This document shows, piece after piece, positions 40,275 to 58,077 of a stretch of 64,000 nt of DNA. The position numbers were made by a program, and so were the translations under genes. This stretch comes from a virus. Every line of letters begins with the position of its first letter. The first letter of the stretch is position 1. The notes beneath the pieces are model-generated. The model worked only from the letters and a program-made list of their open reading frames with translations, made no database searches and had not been told where the DNA came from. The stretch covers positions 46,871-110,870 of IMG/VR virus record IMGVR_UViG_3300031419_000010, one strand, 5' to 3'.

Positions 40275-40581
40275 TGTTCACCTCAATAGAAATGTTCTTT
40301 TCGAACAAATATACATCGTAGAAATAAGATCCATTTTTCACTACTAAATGTTCTACGGGATCGGTTTCACGACTCACAATCTGCATAAACTTGAAACGGT
40401 CTTCAAGTTCCGCACGAAATTCAGGAGTGTATTCAGAAACAGGAATAGACAAGCCTCGCATGTTGCTGTCTTTGAATACGGCGTATGTTCTTGCGTCTAA
40501 CTCTGTAGATTTACAGAATCGCATCCAATGTGCGGGATATAAACGATGAACAATGTTTGATGCGTATGATGTAGTATTCAT
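40249..40581 (-). CDS. hypothetical protein
   Basis: Downstream of CTAATTT on the minus strand. Confidence 0.6.
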   Translation of the reverse strand: MNTTSYASNIVHRLYPAHWMRFCKSTELDARTYAVFKDSNMRGLSIPVSEYTPEFRAELEDRFKFMQIVSRETDPVEHLVVKNGSYFYDVYLFEKNISIEVNSATNPKLI

Positions 40582-40649
40582 GGCATTAAAATCTGTAAAT
40601 TCGAGTTAATAGGTACAGAAAAATTAGTATTTCAAACAGGTGTTATTCT

Positions 40650-41690
40650 ATGAGTGACGTTCATCAGGTAGTTATGGAAGAGATCGGGAAACTTCCCGGC
40701 GATAAAAAGTTTGCAGCAGAATCCATTATTGTTTGCTGTCCGTTCCACGACGACAGATCACCAAGTTGCGGAATCTACACAGCAGTAGGAATGGAAATTC
40801 CATTAGGTTACTTTCACTGTTTCGGTTGCGGTGAAAAAGGAAGTTGGAATGATCTTGCGCGTAAGGCAGGATTGCAGGAAATAAAAGAATGGCGCATGAA
40901 AGACGCAGGCGAAAACTCGCTTAGCGCATTGCTCCAGACTTACGACAAGATGGATAAGAAAGTTGGCACGTATGCAACTGTTGCGCTTTTGATGAAAGCG
41001 TTAAAGCGCGATAGTTATATGGAATGGCCGGAAGATGTGGAGTGGCGAACTTATCCGGGATCGTTAGTTCGTGCGGCAGGTGGATTGTTGAATGCGCAGC
41101 GTACCGGAACAAACATTTGTTTCTTTCCGTGCAAGGTAGGATCAAAATACATTGGCGGCGTTGCGGCGTATCTTACCAAACAATTAACCGGAACAAGTTA
41201 CGTTAACTCTAATGGTGATTGGGCCAAAACAAAAGGTCTGTTTCCGACTCAACTTGTGCGCGACTGTTTGAAAAAATACAAACTGAAATATGTTGTGTTG
41301 GTTGAAGGGCCACGCGATGCGCTTGCGCTTCTCAGTTATGGAATCCCGGCGCTGGCGGTATTAGGTGCGCAGCAGTTTGGATCTGAGAAAAGAAGGCTGG
41401 TTGAAATGTTAGGTGTGACTACGGTCTACACAATGACAGATAACGATGACGGCGGGAAACTTTTGAGGGATAAGATTTTCAAGGAGTTCTCAACCAATTC
41501 GCTTATGCGTGTTAAGCATTTCAAATTGCCGCGTGAGAAGGACGAGAAAGGAAAGCTGATTAAACTTGATCCGGACAATGCGCCAATCAAGATCATCAAA
41601 GAAGTGAAGGCACTGTTGAAAGACGTGCAAGGCGAGAAGTGTTTTATCCCAGCAAAGAAGTTAGGCTGGAAACGCGAGAAGAAAAAATAA
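40650..41690 (+). CDS. DNA primase (CHC2 zinc finger + TOPRIM)
   Basis: CPFHDD...HCFGCG; LVEGPRD; TDND. Confidence 0.88.
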   Translation: MSDVHQVVMEEIGKLPGDKKFAAESIIVCCPFHDDRSPSCGIYTAVGMEIPLGYFHCFGCGEKGSWNDLARKAGLQEIKEWRMKDAGENSLSALLQTYDKMDKKVGTYATVALLMKALKRDSYMEWPEDVEWRTYPGSLVRAAGGLLNAQRTGTNICFFPCKVGSKYIGGVAAYLTKQLTGTSYVNSNGDWAKTKGLFPTQLVRDCLKKYKLKYVVLVEGPRDALALLSYGIPALAVLGAQQFGSEKRRLVEMLGVTTVYTMTDNDDGGKLLRDKIFKEFSTNSLMRVKHFKLPREKDEKGKLIKLDPDNAPIKIIKEVKALLKDVQGEKCFIPAKKLGWKREKKK

Positions 41691-45189: not shown

Positions 45190-45876
45190 TCAAAAGTTTG
45201 GAAATTCCACACAATATTCCAAAACAGTCAAGCTGGAATTTGGTGCTGTATCCAGATGATCTGCGCATGACAAAATTAAAATTCGTGGACGCTGCTTAAA
45301 CGGCAACGTGTGTTTCGAAACCATTTTGGTAACGTTGTCTACAAGCTCGTTTAAGTTTTTCCAGTTGAATGATGCACGGGCAAGATCTTCAACTTGATGC
45401 TTGTTGAAAAGCTCAAGGTATTTTTCGTGCGTGATCATTTCAGTGCCAACGCCTACAGTTTCAAACATGCTGCGAATCACATCACACGTTCGGAACATAG
45501 GAAGCGAAACAGGCGCAAGCGGATCGATAGGTTGGTCAACATTGAATCCACGAGGACAAACAGAGAAAACAAACGTGGTAAAGTTTTTGCCTTCGGTCTG
45601 GATCGTTTCAATTTCGCGATAATAAATATCGCAGCCGAGATCCGGATCAACCGTTGGGAAAACTTTACTGCCAACAAAATGCTGAATATCTTTTATCAGC
45701 TTGTTGTAAGTGATCCAAGTAGATTTAAATTCAAACTGCTCAAGCAGATTGCCTTTGGTATCCCGCGCCGCCTGCCCCGGAAGAAGAATGTGAAGGTCTG
45801 CTTCGAACAGCGCTTCCATTAAAGACTGAATCAGCACGTCAGTTTGAAAATTGTTGGTTTGCATATTAACGGTCAT
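45190..45876 (-). CDS. hypothetical protein
   Basis: ATGA coupling with ruvC. Confidence 0.7.
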   Translation of the reverse strand: MTVNMQTNNFQTDVLIQSLMEALFEADLHILLPGQAARDTKGNLLEQFEFKSTWITYNKLIKDIQHFVGSKVFPTVDPDLGCDIYYREIETIQTEGKNFTTFVFSVCPRGFNVDQPIDPLAPVSLPMFRTCDVIRSMFETVGVGTEMITHEKYLELFNKHQVEDLARASFNWKNLNELVDNVTKMVSKHTLPFKQRPRILILSCADHLDTAPNSSLTVLEYCVEFPNF

Positions 45877-46442
45877 GTTTTAAATTCCAAAAGTTTGGGC
45901 GAATTGAGGAAGCGATCAATTAGTTTGTAGATCGTCTTCTGAATTCCCGCAAAGGGTTTGAGATTGTTCATTTTATAGAACGTATAAACTCCAATCAACA
46001 TGGAGTCGAATTCGTGAATTGCTTTCTTACTCTTTTTCGAAGTAAGTTTAAACTCATCGTAAAGATCTTTGAGTTTTGGTTCGCACTCACGGTTGAAAGC
46101 ATTCTTCCATTGCGAAGCAGTGATCGCAAAGAAGGGAATTTTTTTCTTATGGCAGTAAAAAGCCATAACGCCAATCATGATACTGATTGCTTCGATGGTG
46201 TTTCCACCTAACCCGCGTGACTGAAAGCGTTCAAAACACATTGCGTCAAACGGGCCATACTTTTTGTCGATTGCAGTGATCTCGTCAAGAAACTTTTTCG
46301 TTACTGCGCCAAGATCACCAGTAAGATCTTGAATCGGACTGCCAAACATTCGCGTTCCGATAATGTCCAACTTCTTTTTCTCAAAGTTGATAACGGTAAG
46401 CGCAAAGTTCACTTTTCCGGGATCACCAGATAAAATGCGCAT
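45873..46442 (-). CDS. RuvC-like Holliday junction resolvase
   Basis: ILSGDPG.VNFA, CFERF, ASQWK, HEFDS. Confidence 0.75.
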   Translation of the reverse strand: MRILSGDPGKVNFALTVINFEKKKLDIIGTRMFGSPIQDLTGDLGAVTKKFLDEITAIDKKYGPFDAMCFERFQSRGLGGNTIEAISIMIGVMAFYCHKKKIPFFAITASQWKNAFNRECEPKLKDLYDEFKLTSKKSKKAIHEFDSMLIGVYTFYKMNNLKPFAGIQKTIYKLIDRFLNSPKLLEFKT

Positions 46443-46577: not shown

Positions 46578-47693
46578 ATGAGTTGGATCAATTCTGGAAA
46601 AAGCCGCACCACTTACAAACGACACAAAACTTATGAAGGTGAAAGAGTCCAAAAAAGATTGGACAGCATCATCGAAGTTGTGCAGTCGAAAGTTGAGCAA
46701 GCTCTTGCTGTTGATAGCACAAAAGTTATCATCTTTAAAAAAGCAAAGTTTGGTTTGGTGTGCAGTTGTAACCGCGTCGAAAATGATTTCGAAGATCTTT
46801 TAGAAGGCGGGATGAAAAGCGTTGTGCGCGAAAATGATGGCGAGTCGCGAGGCGCAGGAGTTTCAATTAAAAGTTCCGGCTCCACGATGTTTGGTGGAAA
46901 AGGAAAAGGCGCAATTGCGTTAGATGATATGATCAGTTCCAGTGCGCAGGCCACGCTTGACGCTGCGGATATGATGAGTGACGGCGGCGAAGAAGATATT
47001 CGCTATGACGGAGGCAACAACGTTAACTGCGGTATCTGTTATCGTCAGGGTGTGCAGCCGGGCTATCAGTCAACAGGTTATATCTATAACGTAATGACGC
47101 ATCACCACACGCAAAAACTTTCCGGATACAATGAGGATCAGTCAACAGCGCCAACAACTTTCAAAGCAGTTAAGAAAGGGGCGTACGTTGATTTTGAAAC
47201 CTTAGTACCGAAATATTTTAAGTCGGCAAAATACAGCATTCGCATAAACGAGATTGTGTTGCCGCCTAGCGTGAAAATGTTTGCTGTGATCAACGGCAAA
47301 GAAACCGCGCTCACTCTTGATCTTCTGAACAAAAAGAAAGGTCAGAATATTATTGTGCGCGTCAAAGATGTTGAGGTGTTCACTCACGCCATTTTGATTT
47401 TTGATTTGGGTGTGGCTGACGTTAACTGCAATATCAGCGAAGAACAAAACACGTTGAACTACGATCAAGAACTCACAGTTGGTAATATCACTGTAGTGCT
47501 TCCTGCTCGTGTTGGAATGATTGAGCCGGAAGATATTCTTGTTCTGCCGTTCAAACGTTATGTTCTGAAAGTTACTGAGGCACCAAAGAAACGCACTGCA
47601 AAAAATCAGTCGTGGGAATGGGTTGTCACAACACGTCCAGTACAGCGAAAGGAATTGCAGTACAACATCAACAAAGGTTTTGACTTGAGGTAA
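46578..47693 (+). CDS. probable virion structural (head completion/neck-like) protein
   Basis: CSC...CGIC; beta-rich C-terminus; first gene after the strand switch. Confidence 0.45.
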   Translation: MSWINSGKSRTTYKRHKTYEGERVQKRLDSIIEVVQSKVEQALAVDSTKVIIFKKAKFGLVCSCNRVENDFEDLLEGGMKSVVRENDGESRGAGVSIKSSGSTMFGGKGKGAIALDDMISSSAQATLDAADMMSDGGEEDIRYDGGNNVNCGICYRQGVQPGYQSTGYIYNVMTHHHTQKLSGYNEDQSTAPTTFKAVKKGAYVDFETLVPKYFKSAKYSIRINEIVLPPSVKMFAVINGKETALTLDLLNKKKGQNIIVRVKDVEVFTHAILIFDLGVADVNCNISEEQNTLNYDQELTVGNITVVLPARVGMIEPEDILVLPFKRYVLKVTEAPKKRTAKNQSWEWVVTTRPVQRKELQYNINKGFDLR

Positions 47694-47695
47694 TC

Positions 47696-48256
47696 ATGCA
47701 GACAGAAATTATTCTAGGTCGCAATCCCGATCAGGTTGCAGATATTCCACAAAGCGGAGACGCGCAAAACACGATCACTGGCGAGAAGCTAACAGAGGAT
47801 GCGCCGCGCACTGATTCAACGATCACGATGCGCGACAACGCACCAGTTGTTAAGCAGGCCGAAGCTGTTGACGTTCGTCCGACGAGCATCAAAGCGGTGG
47901 CGTGTGACGATCCCGGCTACGAAGATTATCTTAAACGTTTGTACAACGTTCCGGAAGGCGGCGAAGTGTCAGGCATTCAAAGAATCTTTGCAGGTCTGGC
48001 GCAAGAACTTCACGACATTACTCAGGGATCAATTGATCGCAAATACAATGTTGTTGGCGGTGTGAGTGAGTCGCGATCTAAATCGGCAAATGCGCGAAGC
48101 AAAATGCTGAAAATGATCATGCCGGAATTGAGTCGTGACATGGGCGATAAACTGTCGAAAGCCGTTGGAGACAACGATGGAGACGCTGTTGCTATGCTTA
48201 TGGCGCAGATCGGCAGGAAGTTGCAGAAAAAGCTCAACATGAAAAATCGAAAGTGA
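47696..48256 (+). CDS. hypothetical (possibly virion) protein
   Basis: GAGG SD; internal VSES motif. Confidence 0.65.
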   Translation: MQTEIILGRNPDQVADIPQSGDAQNTITGEKLTEDAPRTDSTITMRDNAPVVKQAEAVDVRPTSIKAVACDDPGYEDYLKRLYNVPEGGEVSGIQRIFAGLAQELHDITQGSIDRKYNVVGGVSESRSKSANARSKMLKMIMPELSRDMGDKLSKAVGDNDGDAVAMLMAQIGRKLQKKLNMKNRK

Positions 48257-48686
48257 GTAGAATCGCATTCTAAGGGCTTAAAACGCAAATCTACGCGATA
48301 TTGAAATTTGCGTTTTTTATTAAATCCCTTTTTACTCTTACATATCAATGACTTACAGAATGAGCCAAATATTTTACACGTATTTCGGAAATGAAACTTT
48401 CGCTATCCTTTGAGTATTTGCCTATATCCATTGAGTATAGGTAGGGCTAGGTAGGGTATAGCTAGATCGTATGGTGATACCTATAGCGGAGCGCAATGCC
48501 GAACGGACGCAGCCCAGGCCCAGGCCGCCCCAGGCGTAAACCAGCGTAGCGTATGCGTGTATAGCTTTTTAAAATAGATAAGGTCACAAAGAATTTTATC
48601 TTGAAGACAAGAGCTAAAAATAAAAGGGATCTTTGGGCAGGTGGATCGGAAAAATTCTGTAAAGATCAAATGTGTTTCGATAAATC
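48257..48686. other. origin-like non-coding region
   Basis: Inverted repeat 48280-48316, IHF box, AT-rich tracts and several short direct repeats. Confidence 0.55.
48343..48355 (+). promoter_or_regulatory. IHF binding site
   Basis: TATCAATGACTTA matches WATCAANNNNTTR, with an upstream A/T tract. Confidence 0.65.
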
Positions 48687-50348
48687 ATGTTTAGGTATGT
48701 TATGGATACTTTTATCATTAAGAATCCTGCGTATCAAGAGCATTTCACAGTCGAATGGGTTCGAAAGAATGTTATCTTTGCGTGTCCGTACGATGGCCCG
48801 GAAGATCGCGAGTGGGAATTTAGAGAACAAGTTTCCACCTTCTTCTGGCACATTGTGCATTGCACACTTTATAACAGCAAGTTTAAAAACGTTAAGCGTC
48901 TTCCGTCTATTCCTTTCGCTTGGGTCTTTGGTATTCAAAAACTGCCTATGGTTTTTGGATCGGCAGGTAGCCACGGATCAAGTTCAAGATACTCGGAAAA
49001 ATCGAGAACGAAGTTTTCACGCGCACTAGAATGGCTAAAAGAAAATGTTCTGGATGTGTCAGGCTATAAATATGGCGCAGCGGGATCGGCGTGTCGTGAG
49101 TTCAGGATCAAACGTGCGGTATTTGATGGCATGTATCCGTACTCTCCGAAAACGCCGGAAGAAATCTTTGGGAAAGTAAGATATTGCAGTCCAAACTTTT
49201 TGCGAAATACTCCAGTGGGAAAAACCTTAGCTGATATTCTTGAAAGGAAATCGGTTGAGGCGTTGGGTAAACCTTCGCATGATTTTGATTCTCTTGATCG
49301 CAATCGTGATCGCGAAGTCAGAAAACTTTACAAGGAAGTTTTAGATAAACAAGATCCTCTTTCGATTACACTGCTTCCTGTTGTGGAAGAGTTGAGTCGA
49401 TTGAGTAAGTTCACCAGCGCTCAAGCAAAGGCCCGTCATCGTTTGGTGTTTTCAAACACAATGGGAATCTTAGCAGGCAACTTTTCTTGCCATAGCGTTG
49501 AGGAAATGAAAATTTCTTATCTGCCAACTTATCGTGTTAGTCCGGTAGGCGGTCGTCTTTATGAATGTGGCGGCGGTTTTCAAAACTTCCCTCGCAGTCT
49601 AAAAGAGCGTTGCCATATTCGCGGGTACAACCACGACATGCGAAGCAGTCAGCTAAACATTTTGAAGATGGAATTTGATCGCAACAATATTCGTTGCAGT
49701 TCAATCCAAAACTACAAAAGCGTTGCAGACTTTGGTGAACCTTATGGCTTGTCGAAAGACGATACAAAGGTTTGCTTTTATGCGACGGTGTTTAGTATAG
49801 GTCAGGCACTGAATGCAAAATCTTGTTGGCACTCTGAACCTCTGCGCGTTATTGCGAAATCAAAACGCACTGAGTGTATTCACCGCGCCGCAAAACAGTT
49901 GGGTAAAAAGTATCGTGACTCTTCAATGATTCCGCCTGTGATAAAGCTGGCGAGAAAGTTGATGGTGAAGGAAACCAATCGCATTCGCGACATTTGGAAC
50001 AAAGAGAACGAAACTTTAACACTGGCGCTTGAAGAACTTTGCGAAATTTATATTTCCAAAGCTCGTAAGGCGAAGGAAAAAAGTGTGCTCACAAATGCAG
50101 TAGGCGTACGATTTGCCTGGCCGACAGAAGAGATAGATTACAAAATCCGAAAACAGATTTTGAGTCACATGATCACGGGAATCGAAACGAAACTTTTGTT
50201 CGATATGATTTTGTCGAATGATGTTCGTGTTTATTCTTTTGAGCACGACGGCGCACTGATTAGCAGAGCGAAGGTATCGTCAGAGGAAATCGAATTTGTT
50301 CGAAAACCTTTCGATGAAACTTCCTATCAGTATTTCAAAAATCTGTAA
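48687..50348 (+). CDS. minimal family-A polymerase-like protein (TV-Pol-like), no exonuclease domain
   Basis: GGRLY..GGFQNFP, NHDMRSSQL (motif A), TKVCFYAT (motif B), FEHDG (motif C). Confidence 0.7.
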   Translation: MFRYVMDTFIIKNPAYQEHFTVEWVRKNVIFACPYDGPEDREWEFREQVSTFFWHIVHCTLYNSKFKNVKRLPSIPFAWVFGIQKLPMVFGSAGSHGSSSRYSEKSRTKFSRALEWLKENVLDVSGYKYGAAGSACREFRIKRAVFDGMYPYSPKTPEEIFGKVRYCSPNFLRNTPVGKTLADILERKSVEALGKPSHDFDSLDRNRDREVRKLYKEVLDKQDPLSITLLPVVEELSRLSKFTSAQAKARHRLVFSNTMGILAGNFSCHSVEEMKISYLPTYRVSPVGGRLYECGGGFQNFPRSLKERCHIRGYNHDMRSSQLNILKMEFDRNNIRCSSIQNYKSVADFGEPYGLSKDDTKVCFYATVFSIGQALNAKSCWHSEPLRVIAKSKRTECIHRAAKQLGKKYRDSSMIPPVIKLARKLMVKETNRIRDIWNKENETLTLALEELCEIYISKARKAKEKSVLTNAVGVRFAWPTEEIDYKIRKQILSHMITGIETKLLFDMILSNDVRVYSFEHDGALISRAKVSSEEIEFVRKPFDETSYQYFKNL

Positions 50349-50385
50349 ATAGTTATCAGTAAACCGAAGTGTTGGAGATTCTATC

Positions 50386-51456
50386 GTGCCGAAGAAAAAC
50401 GCACGGACGGAAAAGTTGCCAGCGGGGTTGGGTGAGTTGTTTGAAGCGGATCGTCCGGAAGAATCCAAAGTGAAACTTCCGAAAAAGATCAACGGCATTC
50501 GACTCAAACCCAAACCGAAGCCTAAAGCAAAAAAGAAGTCCGGGAATGAAGTGCCAATTGAGATCTACGAACTTGCTGCGTTGTACGAATGCTATCACCA
50601 CAACACAGTAACCGATAGTTATCGCACTTGGCCCGATATGACAATTGCAGAAGCATACAAAATCGTTTCTCAGATGAATCCGTCTGAACTCGAAAGCGTA
50701 AAACAATATGCAGCGTTATATCGAAATGACAGCGGCCTTAAATTTGAAGAGTTGCGTGAATTCCGAAACGCACTCATCGAGAAAGAAATTTCGATTGGGA
50801 TTAGCATTCCCCTGTTTATCGAACATTTCAAGATTGAACCGAACGATCCTATCATTGCCTCGTTGCTTTATACGTGGGCGTCTTATGTTAGGACGATGGT
50901 TGAACGACGCAAAAAATTAATCCCCACAAAAACTCGTCATGCTGCTACTGTGCAGGAAGGCGATTTTTGCGTTGAGATAGAGTGTAACGCGGAACAGGCC
51001 AAAGTGCTTGATCGCTATTGCTCAGTGTGGCACGGAACTTTGCTGGCGTGTCGCGACTATCTCAAATCTCTTGGCAATCGTGCGCCAAAGCGTATTGACA
51101 AAATCAGTAGCAAGCTGGCTACTCAGATTCGCAAGGAACATAACTTTGAAGATGTTCCGCGCAGTCTTGTTGTTTGTGCGTTGAATGGGTACACGCAAAA
51201 ACTAAAGTTCGATAACAACAAAGATTTTAAACGCGATCTGGATCGTTTCTACGTGAAGGACAACTTTAAACTTTTTGAAAATTCATTGACTGTCGGTAAA
51301 GCCAAAGAGATTGCTATCACAAAAATTGTTGGTGGTGAGCGTCTTGATCTAACTGTTCGTGGAATTTCTTTTGCCCGTACTTCTCCGTTGGTTTACACCG
51401 TGACGATTCAGTACGATAAAATGGAATTGCTTGAGCAACAGTACGGTACGGATTAA
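50386..51456 (+). CDS. protein with C-terminal TnpB-like REC/WED region lacking RuvC
   Basis: IECNAEQAKVL..., TQIRKEH..EDVPRSLV..AL, FKL..NSLTVGK..I, VRGISFAR...YTVTI. Confidence 0.55.
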   Translation: MPKKNARTEKLPAGLGELFEADRPEESKVKLPKKINGIRLKPKPKPKAKKKSGNEVPIEIYELAALYECYHHNTVTDSYRTWPDMTIAEAYKIVSQMNPSELESVKQYAALYRNDSGLKFEELREFRNALIEKEISIGISIPLFIEHFKIEPNDPIIASLLYTWASYVRTMVERRKKLIPTKTRHAATVQEGDFCVEIECNAEQAKVLDRYCSVWHGTLLACRDYLKSLGNRAPKRIDKISSKLATQIRKEHNFEDVPRSLVVCALNGYTQKLKFDNNKDFKRDLDRFYVKDNFKLFENSLTVGKAKEIAITKIVGGERLDLTVRGISFARTSPLVYTVTIQYDKMELLEQQYGTD

Positions 51457-54680: not shown

Positions 54681-55931
54681 ATGGCTAAAGTTTCAAAACG
54701 CACCATTGGCGACGACGATACCAAAAAGAAAAAGAAAAAGAAGGTTGAAGGAAAGAGCCTGAAAAAGAAAGGTTCGTCTCGCGTGTTTGAACTGGAGACA
54801 AGCAACTTCGCAAACAAGTATCGTCCGAAAAGCATTGAAGACTTTATCGGGCAAGAGCACATTCTCAAACAATACTCAGGTTGGTTGAAGACTAAAAACT
54901 TCCCCAGCGTTATTCTGATCAGCGGTCATTTGGGATCAGGCAAAACAACGTTTGCGGGAATCATCGGTAAGACGGTGAACTGCGAAACGTTAAACGCGTG
55001 TGGTGAGTGTGGTTCGTGTAAAGCGTTTGATGGTGGAATGCACCCGGACATTCTGACTTACGATATGGGTAACGACAGCGGTAAAGTTGACGGCGCTCAA
55101 AAGATTATTGAAAGCAGTACGCTGTCACCGCTTTATAATCGTCGCGTTTATATTCTGGATGAAGCGCACCTGATGACAACTCAAGCGGAATCTAAATTCC
55201 TTATCCCGCTTGAGAATCCGGCACCGCACACTATCTGGATTCTGGTATCAACCGATCCGCAGAAAATCAAAAGCACGATTCTTTCACGCTGCGTTAAGCT
55301 GCCAATCAATCCGATTGATCCGGAAGTGATTGCAGGCCGCATTCGTTCTATCGCGAAAGCAGAAAAGATTCTGCCGAAAGATAAAAAGGAACTGAAAGCC
55401 GCAGACGAAGCGATCAACACAATCGCAGAATACAGTGGCGGTCAGTTGCGTGGTGCAATCGGTTTATTCCAAACTGTTTACAGCGCGGTCAAAGGCGGCG
55501 AAACGTTTAACAATGATCTTGTGCTGGATATGGCGGCATCCGATCCGGACGTTAACTTAGGCGACATGGCTGTAGGCTTCACGCAAAGTTATTTGCAGAT
55601 GGACTTGATTGAAACCGTACGTTTCATTCGTCAGGCGCAAGACATTCGCGGCCTGCTGCATAAAACTCGTTGGCTGCTGCATTACCTGATGGGTAACATC
55701 GCAAAAACAAATAAGTTCCAAACTGCTGAACTTCGCAAGTTCTTAGACGAATCCAAAAAGTCTAAACTTAAAGTGAATCCGGTATCGGTGATTTATTTGC
55801 AGAAGGCGTTGTGTGATATTGAACTGGCTATCAACTCAAGCAGCATTCCAGTTGATGTTATGTTTGAAAGCACTGTCACTGCGCTGATGGCAGATATTTT
55901 TTCTGGTAAACTTTCGGTAGATTTGAAATAA
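54681..55931 (+). CDS. dnaX: DNA polymerase III gamma/tau-like clamp loader subunit
   Basis: KYRP, GQEH, GHLGSGKTT, C..ACGECGSC, LDEAH, TILSRC. Confidence 0.9.
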   Translation: MAKVSKRTIGDDDTKKKKKKKVEGKSLKKKGSSRVFELETSNFANKYRPKSIEDFIGQEHILKQYSGWLKTKNFPSVILISGHLGSGKTTFAGIIGKTVNCETLNACGECGSCKAFDGGMHPDILTYDMGNDSGKVDGAQKIIESSTLSPLYNRRVYILDEAHLMTTQAESKFLIPLENPAPHTIWILVSTDPQKIKSTILSRCVKLPINPIDPEVIAGRIRSIAKAEKILPKDKKELKAADEAINTIAEYSGGQLRGAIGLFQTVYSAVKGGETFNNDLVLDMAASDPDVNLGDMAVGFTQSYLQMDLIETVRFIRQAQDIRGLLHKTRWLLHYLMGNIAKTNKFQTAELRKFLDESKKSKLKVNPVSVIYLQKALCDIELAINSSSIPVDVMFESTVTALMADIFSGKLSVDLK

Positions 55932-56598: not shown

Positions 56599-56612
56599 TT
56601 TTGAGGTTCCTT

Positions 56613-57290
56613 ATGAAAATTCTAGTCAGCTTGTCGAAAGCGGTTTCGGCTTTCACTCCAAAAGATCAAGCAGCCTTCGACAAGTGGTTTGGAAAATCAG
56701 TTGTCAAAGATCCGCAGGGAAATCCTCTCACTGTATTTCACGGTACTCCGGGAGATTTCAACACGTTTGATCGTAAGCGCTTAGGCTTAGGCAACGACGA
56801 ATATGGCATTGGATTTTATTTCACTGACAGCGCAGAGTTTGCCCGTGCTTATATGGGCGACAGCGGAAGCACAATGCCTGTGTATCTTAAAATTCAAAAG
56901 CCGATTATTTTTGAGAAGCAGCCACGCCTTACATACACGCAGGCTTTCAAAATTGCGAATGGTTTAACGCGCCCTCACTTTAATCGCTTTCTTGCTGAAA
57001 ACTATGATTTGGATTATCAAGGTCTGGCAAGTGCGAAGCGTGAGTATCTGGAAAACTTTGTTGGCATGGATGTTATCGACGCAGGTAACAATCTGTTCCA
57101 AGATCTTTATAAAGACGAACCCGAAGCATATCGCTTCCCGGAAGTCTTTGCAGCCGCAACAGGAAGAGACGGCATAATTGCAAAACGTGGTCAACACTTT
57201 TTCTACATCGTGTTTAGTCCGACGCAAATCAAATCTGCAATCGGAAACAAGGGAACGTTTAAACCACGTACCGAAAACATTCTGGAGTAA
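56613..57290 (+). CDS. ADP-ribosyltransferase-like protein (ART-PolyVal type) with MKILVSLS leader
   Basis: FDKWFGKS...PLTVFHGT, GFYFT, MPVYL, DGII, VFSPTQIKSA..NKGTF. Confidence 0.7.
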   Translation: MKILVSLSKAVSAFTPKDQAAFDKWFGKSVVKDPQGNPLTVFHGTPGDFNTFDRKRLGLGNDEYGIGFYFTDSAEFARAYMGDSGSTMPVYLKIQKPIIFEKQPRLTYTQAFKIANGLTRPHFNRFLAENYDLDYQGLASAKREYLENFVGMDVIDAGNNLFQDLYKDEPEAYRFPEVFAAATGRDGIIAKRGQHFFYIVFSPTQIKSAIGNKGTFKPRTENILE

Positions 57291-58032: not shown

Positions 58033-58077
58033 CACGTCTAAATCTGTAAAATGCTGATATAGGTTTAATATTTAACG

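Follow-up and report, generated by a model that had tools for sequence, protein, structure and literature searches.

A probable TV-Pol-type polymerase in the replication module of Salmondvirus-like jumbo phages

The polymerase gene, its fold and its active site

We analyzed a 64,000-nucleotide stretch of viral DNA, positions 46,871 to 110,870 of IMG/VR record IMGVR_UViG_3300031419_000010, which we call the window and in whose numbering coordinates are given unless another locus is named. The window is part of a 110,870-base IMG/VR fragment (44% complete) from a jumbo phage near Dickeya phage JA11 (Salmondvirus). Our subject is the gene at 48687-50348, an open reading frame (ORF) of 553 aa that very probably encodes a minimal family-A polymerase of the TV-Pol type and whose product is 83% identical to its JA11 counterpart. 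The gene has the following features.

48687-50348, + strand: gene for a probable TV-Pol-type minimal family-A polymerase; open ORF, 553 aa, probable start at 48702
48714-49256, + strand: N-terminal domain, residues ~10-190; alpha/beta, weakly winged-helix-like
49269-49526, + strand: thumb-like helical segment, residues ~195-280, with helices 209-219, 230-240 and 245-263; placed by structural alignments
49527-50321, + strand: palm and fingers, residues ~281-545; placed by motif conservation and fold matches
49548-49592, + strand: beta-hairpin arginine motif GGRLYECGGGFQNFP, residues 288-302, containing R290
49635, + strand: D317 of motif A, NHDMRSSQLNIL, which also contains Q322
49767, + strand: K361 of motif B, TKVCFYATVFSIG, which also contains Y365 and F369
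49803-50009, + strand: helical insertion in the fingers, residues ~373-441; partly specific to the Salmondvirus type
residues 493-500, + strand: SHMITGIE (the ITGIE/LQGxE motif), with G498 and E500
50244 and 50247, + strand: H520 and D521 of motif C, SFEHDGAL (EHDG)

In an alignment of 18 homologues, the first five residues of the 553-aa ORF are unconserved and the homologous proteins open with MDTFIIKNP; the true start is therefore probably the ATG at 48702 and not the one at 48687. Homologues were found in 43 phage records, all from jumbo phages of Erwinia, Dickeya and Yersinia, and all 43 carry the label 'hypothetical protein'. The protein belongs to PHROG 30690, an unnamed family, and neither it nor 50 of its relatives matched a Pfam family at E <= 0.1. 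When 1.84 billion cluster representatives were searched with a profile, 408 relatives appeared at E <= 1e-3. The enzyme in these Dickeya, Erwinia and Yersinia phages is mentioned neither in a 2021 survey of jumbo phages (PMC7824862) nor in a 2023 reclassification of PolA (PMC10201439). The homologue of JA11 and JA33 (JA11_200; MH389777 12445-13662) is annotated as a protein of 405 aa whose start lies ~148 codons late, leaving the N-terminal domain unannotated.

We examined the fold with an AlphaFold model built from an 18-row alignment (mean pLDDT 80.3, pTM 0.75). Searched against the PDB with Foldseek, its top 30 matches were all family-A DNA polymerases (E 1.5e-4 to 9e-4, probability 1.0), and POLRMT and T7 RNAP ranked after them. 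A second structural search, VIA-align over 48,161 chains, placed Pol nu and Pol theta among the best matches, and the alignments to Pol nu, KlenTaq, Pol theta and T7 DNAP began at model residues 189-202. The model has the family-A palm and fingers on which the original prediction, made from the sequence alone, depended. Residues ~190-545 thus comprise a minimal core of thumb, hairpin arginine (R290), two-aspartate palm and fingers, with a GGGFQN motif also lying in the palm/fingers region. The original prediction had left ~280 N-terminal residues unassigned; an N-terminal part does resist assignment, but it extends over only ~190 residues, because the thumb at ~195-280 belongs to the polymerase fold.

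The N-terminal domain is kept in distant relatives, where the patterns FFxH...VP.P and CR.[FY] recur. The top 50 structural matches listed for it were of winged-helix type and none was of DnaQ/RNase H type, a result compatible with other folds as well; the domain alone gave zero Foldseek matches at E <= 1e-3, and an Atlas feature search was uninformative (0.84). Pfam detected no exonuclease domain in the polymerase protein. The fingers insertion is ~35 residues longer than in homologues of the Alexandra and Y3 type, forms long helices in the model (384-440) and draws unrelated helical-hairpin structural matches.

The polymerase motifs that the original prediction placed at ~49548, 49635, 49767 and 50244 all lie in the open 553-aa ORF. 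Residues R290, D317, K361, Y365, G498, E500 and E519-H520-D521-G522 are invariant in 18 close homologues with identities down to 35%. Across the family, counted in 174 sequences aligned to the profile with gap rows left out, R290 is kept in 169 of 169 relatives, K361 in 168 of 171 and Q299 in 167, with G498 and E500 each found in 160/160 and G522 in 156/156. The two motif aspartates, conservation of which had been proposed as a check, are equally constant (D317 in 170/171, D521 in 156/156). Other positions vary more: position 322 is Gln in 154 and His in 13 of 171 relatives, and position 369 is Phe in 88, Met in 52 and Tyr in 12. The fourth motif is LQGxE in most members of the wider family, which brings it nearer the QG motif of Pol I. 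Four residues ahead of K361 there is Lys here and Val (63), Lys (39) or Arg (22) in the family, in a region where the alignment register is uncertain. Judged from the sequences, this motif conservation is far above chance, and a complete family-A active site is under strong purifying selection.

The active site also bears on the probable substrate. Q322 lies five residues after the motif A aspartate, at what we take to be the steric-gate position, and F369 presumably corresponds to Y639 of T7 RNAP, which reads the 2'-OH; both equivalences come from motif spacing and textbook knowledge, not from superposed coordinates. The steric gate of Klenow is E710, and T7 RNAP has Gly there. Motif B of T7 DNAP is K-x3-Y-x3-Y, and here it is K-x3-Y-x3-F. 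Because Gln occupies the steric-gate position and motif B resembles that of T7 DNAP, these residues would favour the use of dNTPs.

The same data bear on whether the protein is a single-subunit RNA polymerase that, like T7 RNAP or mitochondrial RNAP, transcribes a subset of phage genes or makes an RNA primer at an origin. The general likeness of fold extends to such enzymes, but DNA polymerases scored higher and with lower rmsd in VIA-align, and the family has Gln or His, not Gly, at the presumed steric gate and mostly Phe or Met at the presumed Y639 position. There is no Pfam RNA_pol match, and the ~350-residue core is far smaller than the known promoter-specific single-subunit RNA polymerases. 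We regard an RNA polymerase, the 'mini RNA polymerase' alternative of the original prediction, as quite improbable.

Relation to TV-Pols and other polymerases

A profile of 28 distant relatives matched ORF30 of Microcystis phage Ma-LMM01 (BAF36121) at E 4.5e-18, and the match to the N-terminal domain (profile positions 5-111) reached E 2.7e-14. The alignment of close homologues also matched ORF30 (hhalign probability 94.7, E 6e-8), with the arginine hairpin, motif A and motif C in register. ORF30 adjoins an OrfB_IS605/Cas12f-like TnpB and an IS200 TnpA (Y1_Tnp). Relatives in Nostoc, Calothrix and other cyanobacterial genomes adjoin large serine recombinases and a KilA-C/ANT protein (Resolvase and Zn_ribbon_recom at loci L025 and L028, ANT/KilA-C at L023), and relatives also occur in Rhodothermales genomes.

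These contexts match those described for TV-Pols with an N-terminal globular domain, which occur in elements that carry a resolvase, integrase or IS605/IS630 gene together with Bro-N/KilA-C, one such element being integrated in Ma-LMM01 (Iyer, Abhiman and Aravind 2008, PMC2579912). The defining traits of TV-Pols are a bi-helical thumb, a hairpin with an absolutely conserved Arg and an RRM-like palm with two Asp; in addition, the fingers are inserted after palm strand 1, an RxxxK motif lies in the first fingers helix, and fusion or linkage to a nuclease domain is never seen (PMC2579912). They were predicted to act both as primases and as DNA polymerases (PMC2579912). Since the main text of that paper names the phage and not the ORF, we infer that ORF30 is its Ma-LMM01 TV-Pol. 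On the strength of the profile link to ORF30 and of the matching recombinase, KilA-C and IS605 contexts, we file the protein with high confidence among the TV-Pols, in the subset with an N-terminal globular domain. The stand-alone minimal TV-Pol-type polymerase named by the original prediction, with no recognisable exonuclease, is thereby borne out.

The protein shares with TV-Pols, and with ORF30, the minimal core of thumb, hairpin arginine, palm and fingers, the two Asp, the apparent lack of a nuclease domain, the extra N-terminal domain and coexistence with the genome's own replicase. It differs in three respects. Its gene belongs, with conserved synteny, to the replication module of a jumbo phage and not to a small transposon-like element; the N-terminal domain, predicted to be all-helical in PMC2579912, is alpha/beta and winged-helix-like in our model; and the Arg of RxxxK is Lys here and variable across the family. 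A TV-Pol homologue is split into two ORFs in a cyanobacterial metagenome-assembled genome (L029 7995-9549; 198 + 311 aa) and in a provirus (L034 7974-9473; 246 + 250 aa), which could reflect decay or a sequencing frameshift.

The sequence offers no direct bridge to canonical PolA. The polymerase protein gave no match to PF00476, against which the real PolA of this phage type scores 180 bits, and Pfam and PDB-sequence searches with the protein and its profile returned no link to canonical PolA. Compared with canonical family-A enzymes (Klenow, KlenTaq, T7 DNAP, Pol nu, Pol theta), the core has ~350 residues instead of ~420-600, motif C is EHDG instead of HDE, Gln replaces Glu at the steric-gate position, and both the Pfam DNA_pol_A match and any recognisable 3'-5' exonuclease domain are missing. 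The lack of a sequence-profile match might suggest an inactive polymerase fold retained as a structural or regulatory protein. However, both Asp, the hairpin Arg, the O-helix Lys and the QG/E motif are near-invariant in 150-170 sequences at 15-30% identity, and we find an inactive protein very hard to credit.

To our knowledge, the sole TV-Pol-type enzyme that has been assayed is CCPol-MP. Encoded by SCCmec, CCPol extends primers and, together with its partner MP, synthesizes DNA primers from dNTPs de novo close to a specific site (Bebel et al. 2020, PMC7581432; see also Rice 2023, PMC10061031); that it primes with dNTPs only also argues against an RNA polymerase here (PMC7581432). CCPol belongs to the CHEAP subfamily, close to canonical PolA (PMC10201439). 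Comparing by description and not by sequence, we note that both are exonuclease-less family-A polymerases on mobile DNA, but CCPol keeps three exonuclease-domain helices that grip the OB-fold partner MP and adjoins a helicase, and none of these features was seen here.

A further comparison is divPolA2 (representative AUR84708, Vibrio phage 1.063.O), a second divergent PolA in large phages (Yutin et al. 2024, PMC11348598). It resembles the protein here in lacking an exonuclease, in having an N-terminal domain without assignment, in being extra to the regular DNA polymerase and in the motifs GGR-x-Y/F ... QN-x-P. In divPolA2 the thumb is not homologous and the neighbourhoods are variable (PMC11348598), whereas the protein here can be aligned with PolA thumbs starting at residue ~190 and is encoded within a conserved replication module. 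Our 51-row profile matched nothing in the representative genome MG592441, and hhalign gave E 0.03-0.05 over 27-43 columns covering one motif only. As membership in divPolA2 was not shown by these searches, we treat it as analogous.

A repair role has been proposed for divPolA2 (Yutin et al. 2024, PMC11348598), and the polymerase here could likewise serve repair or recombination by filling gaps, extending D-loops or bypassing lesions, as Pol I, Pol nu and Pol theta do, without starting chains. The presence of Pol nu and Pol theta among the best structural matches and the apparent lack of a proofreading domain suit such a role, as do a Holliday-junction resolvase gene at 45873-46442, genes labelled exonucleases nearby in the JA11 annotation, and co-occurrence with a full replicase and primase. 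We consider it unlikely, with a real if minor chance of being right.

Replication module, upstream DNA and a divergent block

The surroundings of the polymerase gene contain the following features.

40650-41690, + strand: DnaG-type primase (Zn_ribbon_DnaG and Toprim_2)
45873-46442: Holliday-junction resolvase gene
46578-48256, + strand: two genes of 371 aa and 186 aa (PHROGs 21298 and 31583), syntenic in all genera
48257-48686: non-coding stretch of 430 bp, aligned to JA11, JA29 and L003; includes a GC-rich tract
48280-48316: terminator-like hairpin and T run
48344 and 48373: conserved boxes ATCAATGACTTACAGA and TTTACACG, respectively, kept among Salmondvirus phages
48404-48465: short direct repeats
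48656-48663, + strand: TCTGTAAA box, 31 nt before the ATG at 48687 and 46 nt before the ATG at 48702
50386-51456, + strand: downstream gene of 356 aa, found only in Salmondvirus-type phages and inside the divergent block described below
54681-55931, + strand: clamp-loader AAA+ subunit (DNA_pol3_delta2, E 4e-29)

The complete JA11 genome encodes one canonical PolA of 1005 aa, which combines the 180-bit DNA_pol_A match with a 3'-5' exonuclease domain; neither PolB nor PolIII alpha was found in that genome. The same kit of PolA, clamp and clamp loader is present in the related PaBG group (PMC7412058). The original prediction had called the gene at 54681-55931 DnaX and taken it as a sign of a PolIII-type replisome. 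This does not hold, because JA11 encodes a canonical, exonuclease-bearing PolA but lacks PolIII alpha, and the gene encodes a clamp-loader subunit. The accompanying claim that the TV-Pol is not the replicase survives, now with the separate PolA of JA11 behind it. Since this phage type has a PolA with exonuclease, a DnaG-type primase and a clamp loader, the polymerase is an accessory enzyme of the replication module.

The position of the gene is constant in 16 loci from Salmondvirus, Alexandra-like, Y3-like and AD1-like phages. In these syntenic loci the order is primase, several genes, Holliday-junction resolvase, 371-aa gene, 186-aa gene, a gap of 390-500 bp and the polymerase, followed by variable small genes, a 'peptidase' PHROG and the clamp loader. 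Two unrelated phage contigs have an AAA+ ATPase, a TV-Pol, two small genes, DnaB, a PolA with exonuclease and a Toprim protein, so a TV-Pol recurrently occurs alongside a full replicase and primase.

The PolA genes of these unrelated contigs lie at L035 12720-15767 and L036 8285-11344, and the former has an intein-like insertion in its polymerase domain (Intein_splicing E 1.6e-5, under the Pfam cut-off). We also considered whether a TV-Pol stands in for a missing primase in other phages. Contigs G003 and G004 gave no matches to Prim-Pol or the DnaG zinc ribbon, but both carry Toprim proteins, and the idea was rejected. In Alexandra and Y3, the polymerase gene is followed by a gene of 165-174 aa whose start codon overlaps or abuts the polymerase stop codon (L015 9587-10084, L018 9579-10103) and whose product may be a translationally coupled polymerase partner; the 165-aa gene of Alexandra is unrelated in sequence to the 356-aa gene of the window. 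Elsewhere in the window, at 56601-57290, a 229-aa protein has an ART-PolyVal ADP-ribosyltransferase domain (E 6e-26).

A gap of 390-500 bp likewise precedes the polymerase gene in Alexandra and Y3. The stretch at 48257-48686 had no Rfam match, its RNA-fold z scores on the two strands were -0.2 and -0.1, and a consensus scan found no excess of promoters or terminators. In this stretch and seven related loci, repeats were short and present in only 2-3 copies.

The window has 24 copies of the pattern TCTGYAAA where 7.9 would be expected, and shuffled sequences always had fewer than 24. A-rich TCTGTAAA copies lie 30-70 nt upstream of the genes for the primase (40592), the polymerase (48656), the 356-aa protein (50342) and the clamp loader (54633), and a -10-like TAxxx element follows the A-rich box by 8-14 nt. 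Further copies lie at 58043 (+), 34337 (-) and 40510 (-). Of all copies in the window, most are 30-70 nt before start codons. The box upstream of the polymerase gene is retained in other genera. The TCTGTAAA box is probably a phage promoter class, and its presence before the polymerase, primase and clamp-loader genes suggests that the polymerase gene is co-regulated with replication genes.

The sign of the GC skew changes at ~40.3-40.6 kb, with the cumulative minimum at ~40.4 kb, and a divergent gap beside the primase gene (40275-40649) holds two opposed TCTGTAAA boxes (40510 - and 40592 +). Transcription alone does not explain the switch, because the skew of the minus-strand genes at 41.7-46.4 kb stays at zero or higher. 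As far as composition can tell, 40275-40649 would be a better origin candidate than 48257-48686. Given the skew switch at ~40.4 kb and the lack of an RNA or repeat signal, an origin at 48.3-48.7 kb is not supported.

Comparison of JA11 with JA29 delimited a divergent block. Their DNA is 96-100% identical on both flanks, but identity is only 40-55% across the polymerase gene and the non-coding stretch before it, is 55-78% across the next gene and returns to ~97% at window position ~51,467. The edges coincide with gene boundaries, on the left at 48256 (stop of the 186-aa gene) and on the right at 51456 (stop of the 356-aa gene). The polymerase protein of the window, for its part, is 83% identical to that of JA11 and 45% identical to that of JA29, whereas the flanking proteins are equally near both. 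Because they diverge jointly and with sharp edges, the non-coding DNA, the polymerase gene and the next gene appear to form one exchangeable unit. Such a unit would fit either a cognate set of DNA and proteins or the legacy of a mobile element.

The Atlas features of the 356-aa protein resemble those of transposase N-terminal fragments and of HTH_OrfB_IS605 clusters (0.88-0.90), a weak lead. A relationship to TnpB was not recovered by hhalign to the TnpB of Ma-LMM01 (E 0.7), and Pfam and PDB profile searches returned nothing relevant.

The block also raises the prospect that 48257-51456 is a selfish hitch-hiking cassette, descended from a TV-Pol mobile element, kept or spread through replication or recombination of its own and doing little or nothing for the phage. 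Mobile elements with recombinases, TnpA and TnpB are where TV-Pols typically occur (PMC2579912), the divergence between JA11 and JA29 is confined to the block with its breakpoints at gene boundaries, and the next gene is possibly derived from TnpB. Against this, the polymerase gene keeps its place in every genus examined (Salmondvirus, Alexandra-like, Y3-like and AD1), shares its TCTGTAAA box with core replication genes and has a fully conserved active site, and our searches of the block revealed neither a recombinase nor a transposase whose catalytic domain is intact. We judge a purely selfish origin of the block's persistence improbable.

A more elaborate proposal treats 48257-51456 as an initiation cassette that is complete in itself and exchangeable. 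Its parts would be the non-coding DNA, a TV-Pol that begins DNA chains on this DNA by way of its winged-helix-like head and a nuclease-less, TnpB-derived recognition protein that assists in choosing the site, all co-diversifying as a unit among phages that are nearly identical elsewhere. This is a long shot; if true, each phage lineage would own its private origin-initiator pair.

Proposed role of the accessory polymerase

The reading we prefer, with confidence somewhat short of even, is that the polymerase serves as an accessory DNA primase-polymerase or initiator, beginning chains at particular sites. In this model, a compact family-A core (residues ~190-545) would work behind an N-terminal domain of ~190 residues that possibly binds nucleic acid. 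If catalytically active as its motifs predict, the TV-Pol would start or extend DNA chains from dNTPs at particular sites, perhaps guided by the N-terminal domain, and would then hand over to the replicase, for which CCPol-MP is the precedent.

Several points weigh against a site-specific primase-polymerase. The link to family A comes from structure prediction and motifs, and sequence profiles stop short of canonical PolA: hhalign to the PolA of this phage type and to three PolAs gave E ~0.3, though with the right motifs aligned. We know of no assayed member of the TV-Pol subset with an N-terminal domain. CCPol needs an OB-fold partner to prime, and none was identified here among neighbours that have no recognisable domains (no Pfam domains in the 186-aa and 356-aa proteins or in the 165-174-aa proteins of Alexandra and Y3). 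A second primase would not be required, as a DnaG-type primase is already present. No origin was shown beside the polymerase gene, and the GC-skew switch lies 8 kb upstream, at ~40.4 kb. The steric-gate equivalence, on which the predicted preference for dNTPs leans, reflects motif spacing and not coordinates.

TV-Pols as an enzyme class have been known since 2008; new here are the residue conservation across 174 sequences, the corrected view of the replisome, the common upstream box and the divergence of the JA11/JA29 block. TV-Pols are viewed as resembling the ancestor from which DNA polymerase I and T7-type RNA polymerases arose. A culturable clade of Dickeya, Erwinia and Yersinia jumbo phages keeps such an enzyme as a fixed part of its replication module, beside the replicase, primase and clamp loader. 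Because JA11 and JA29 are a natural near-isogenic pair that differ in the block, the role of a second, minimal polymerase is directly testable in these phages.

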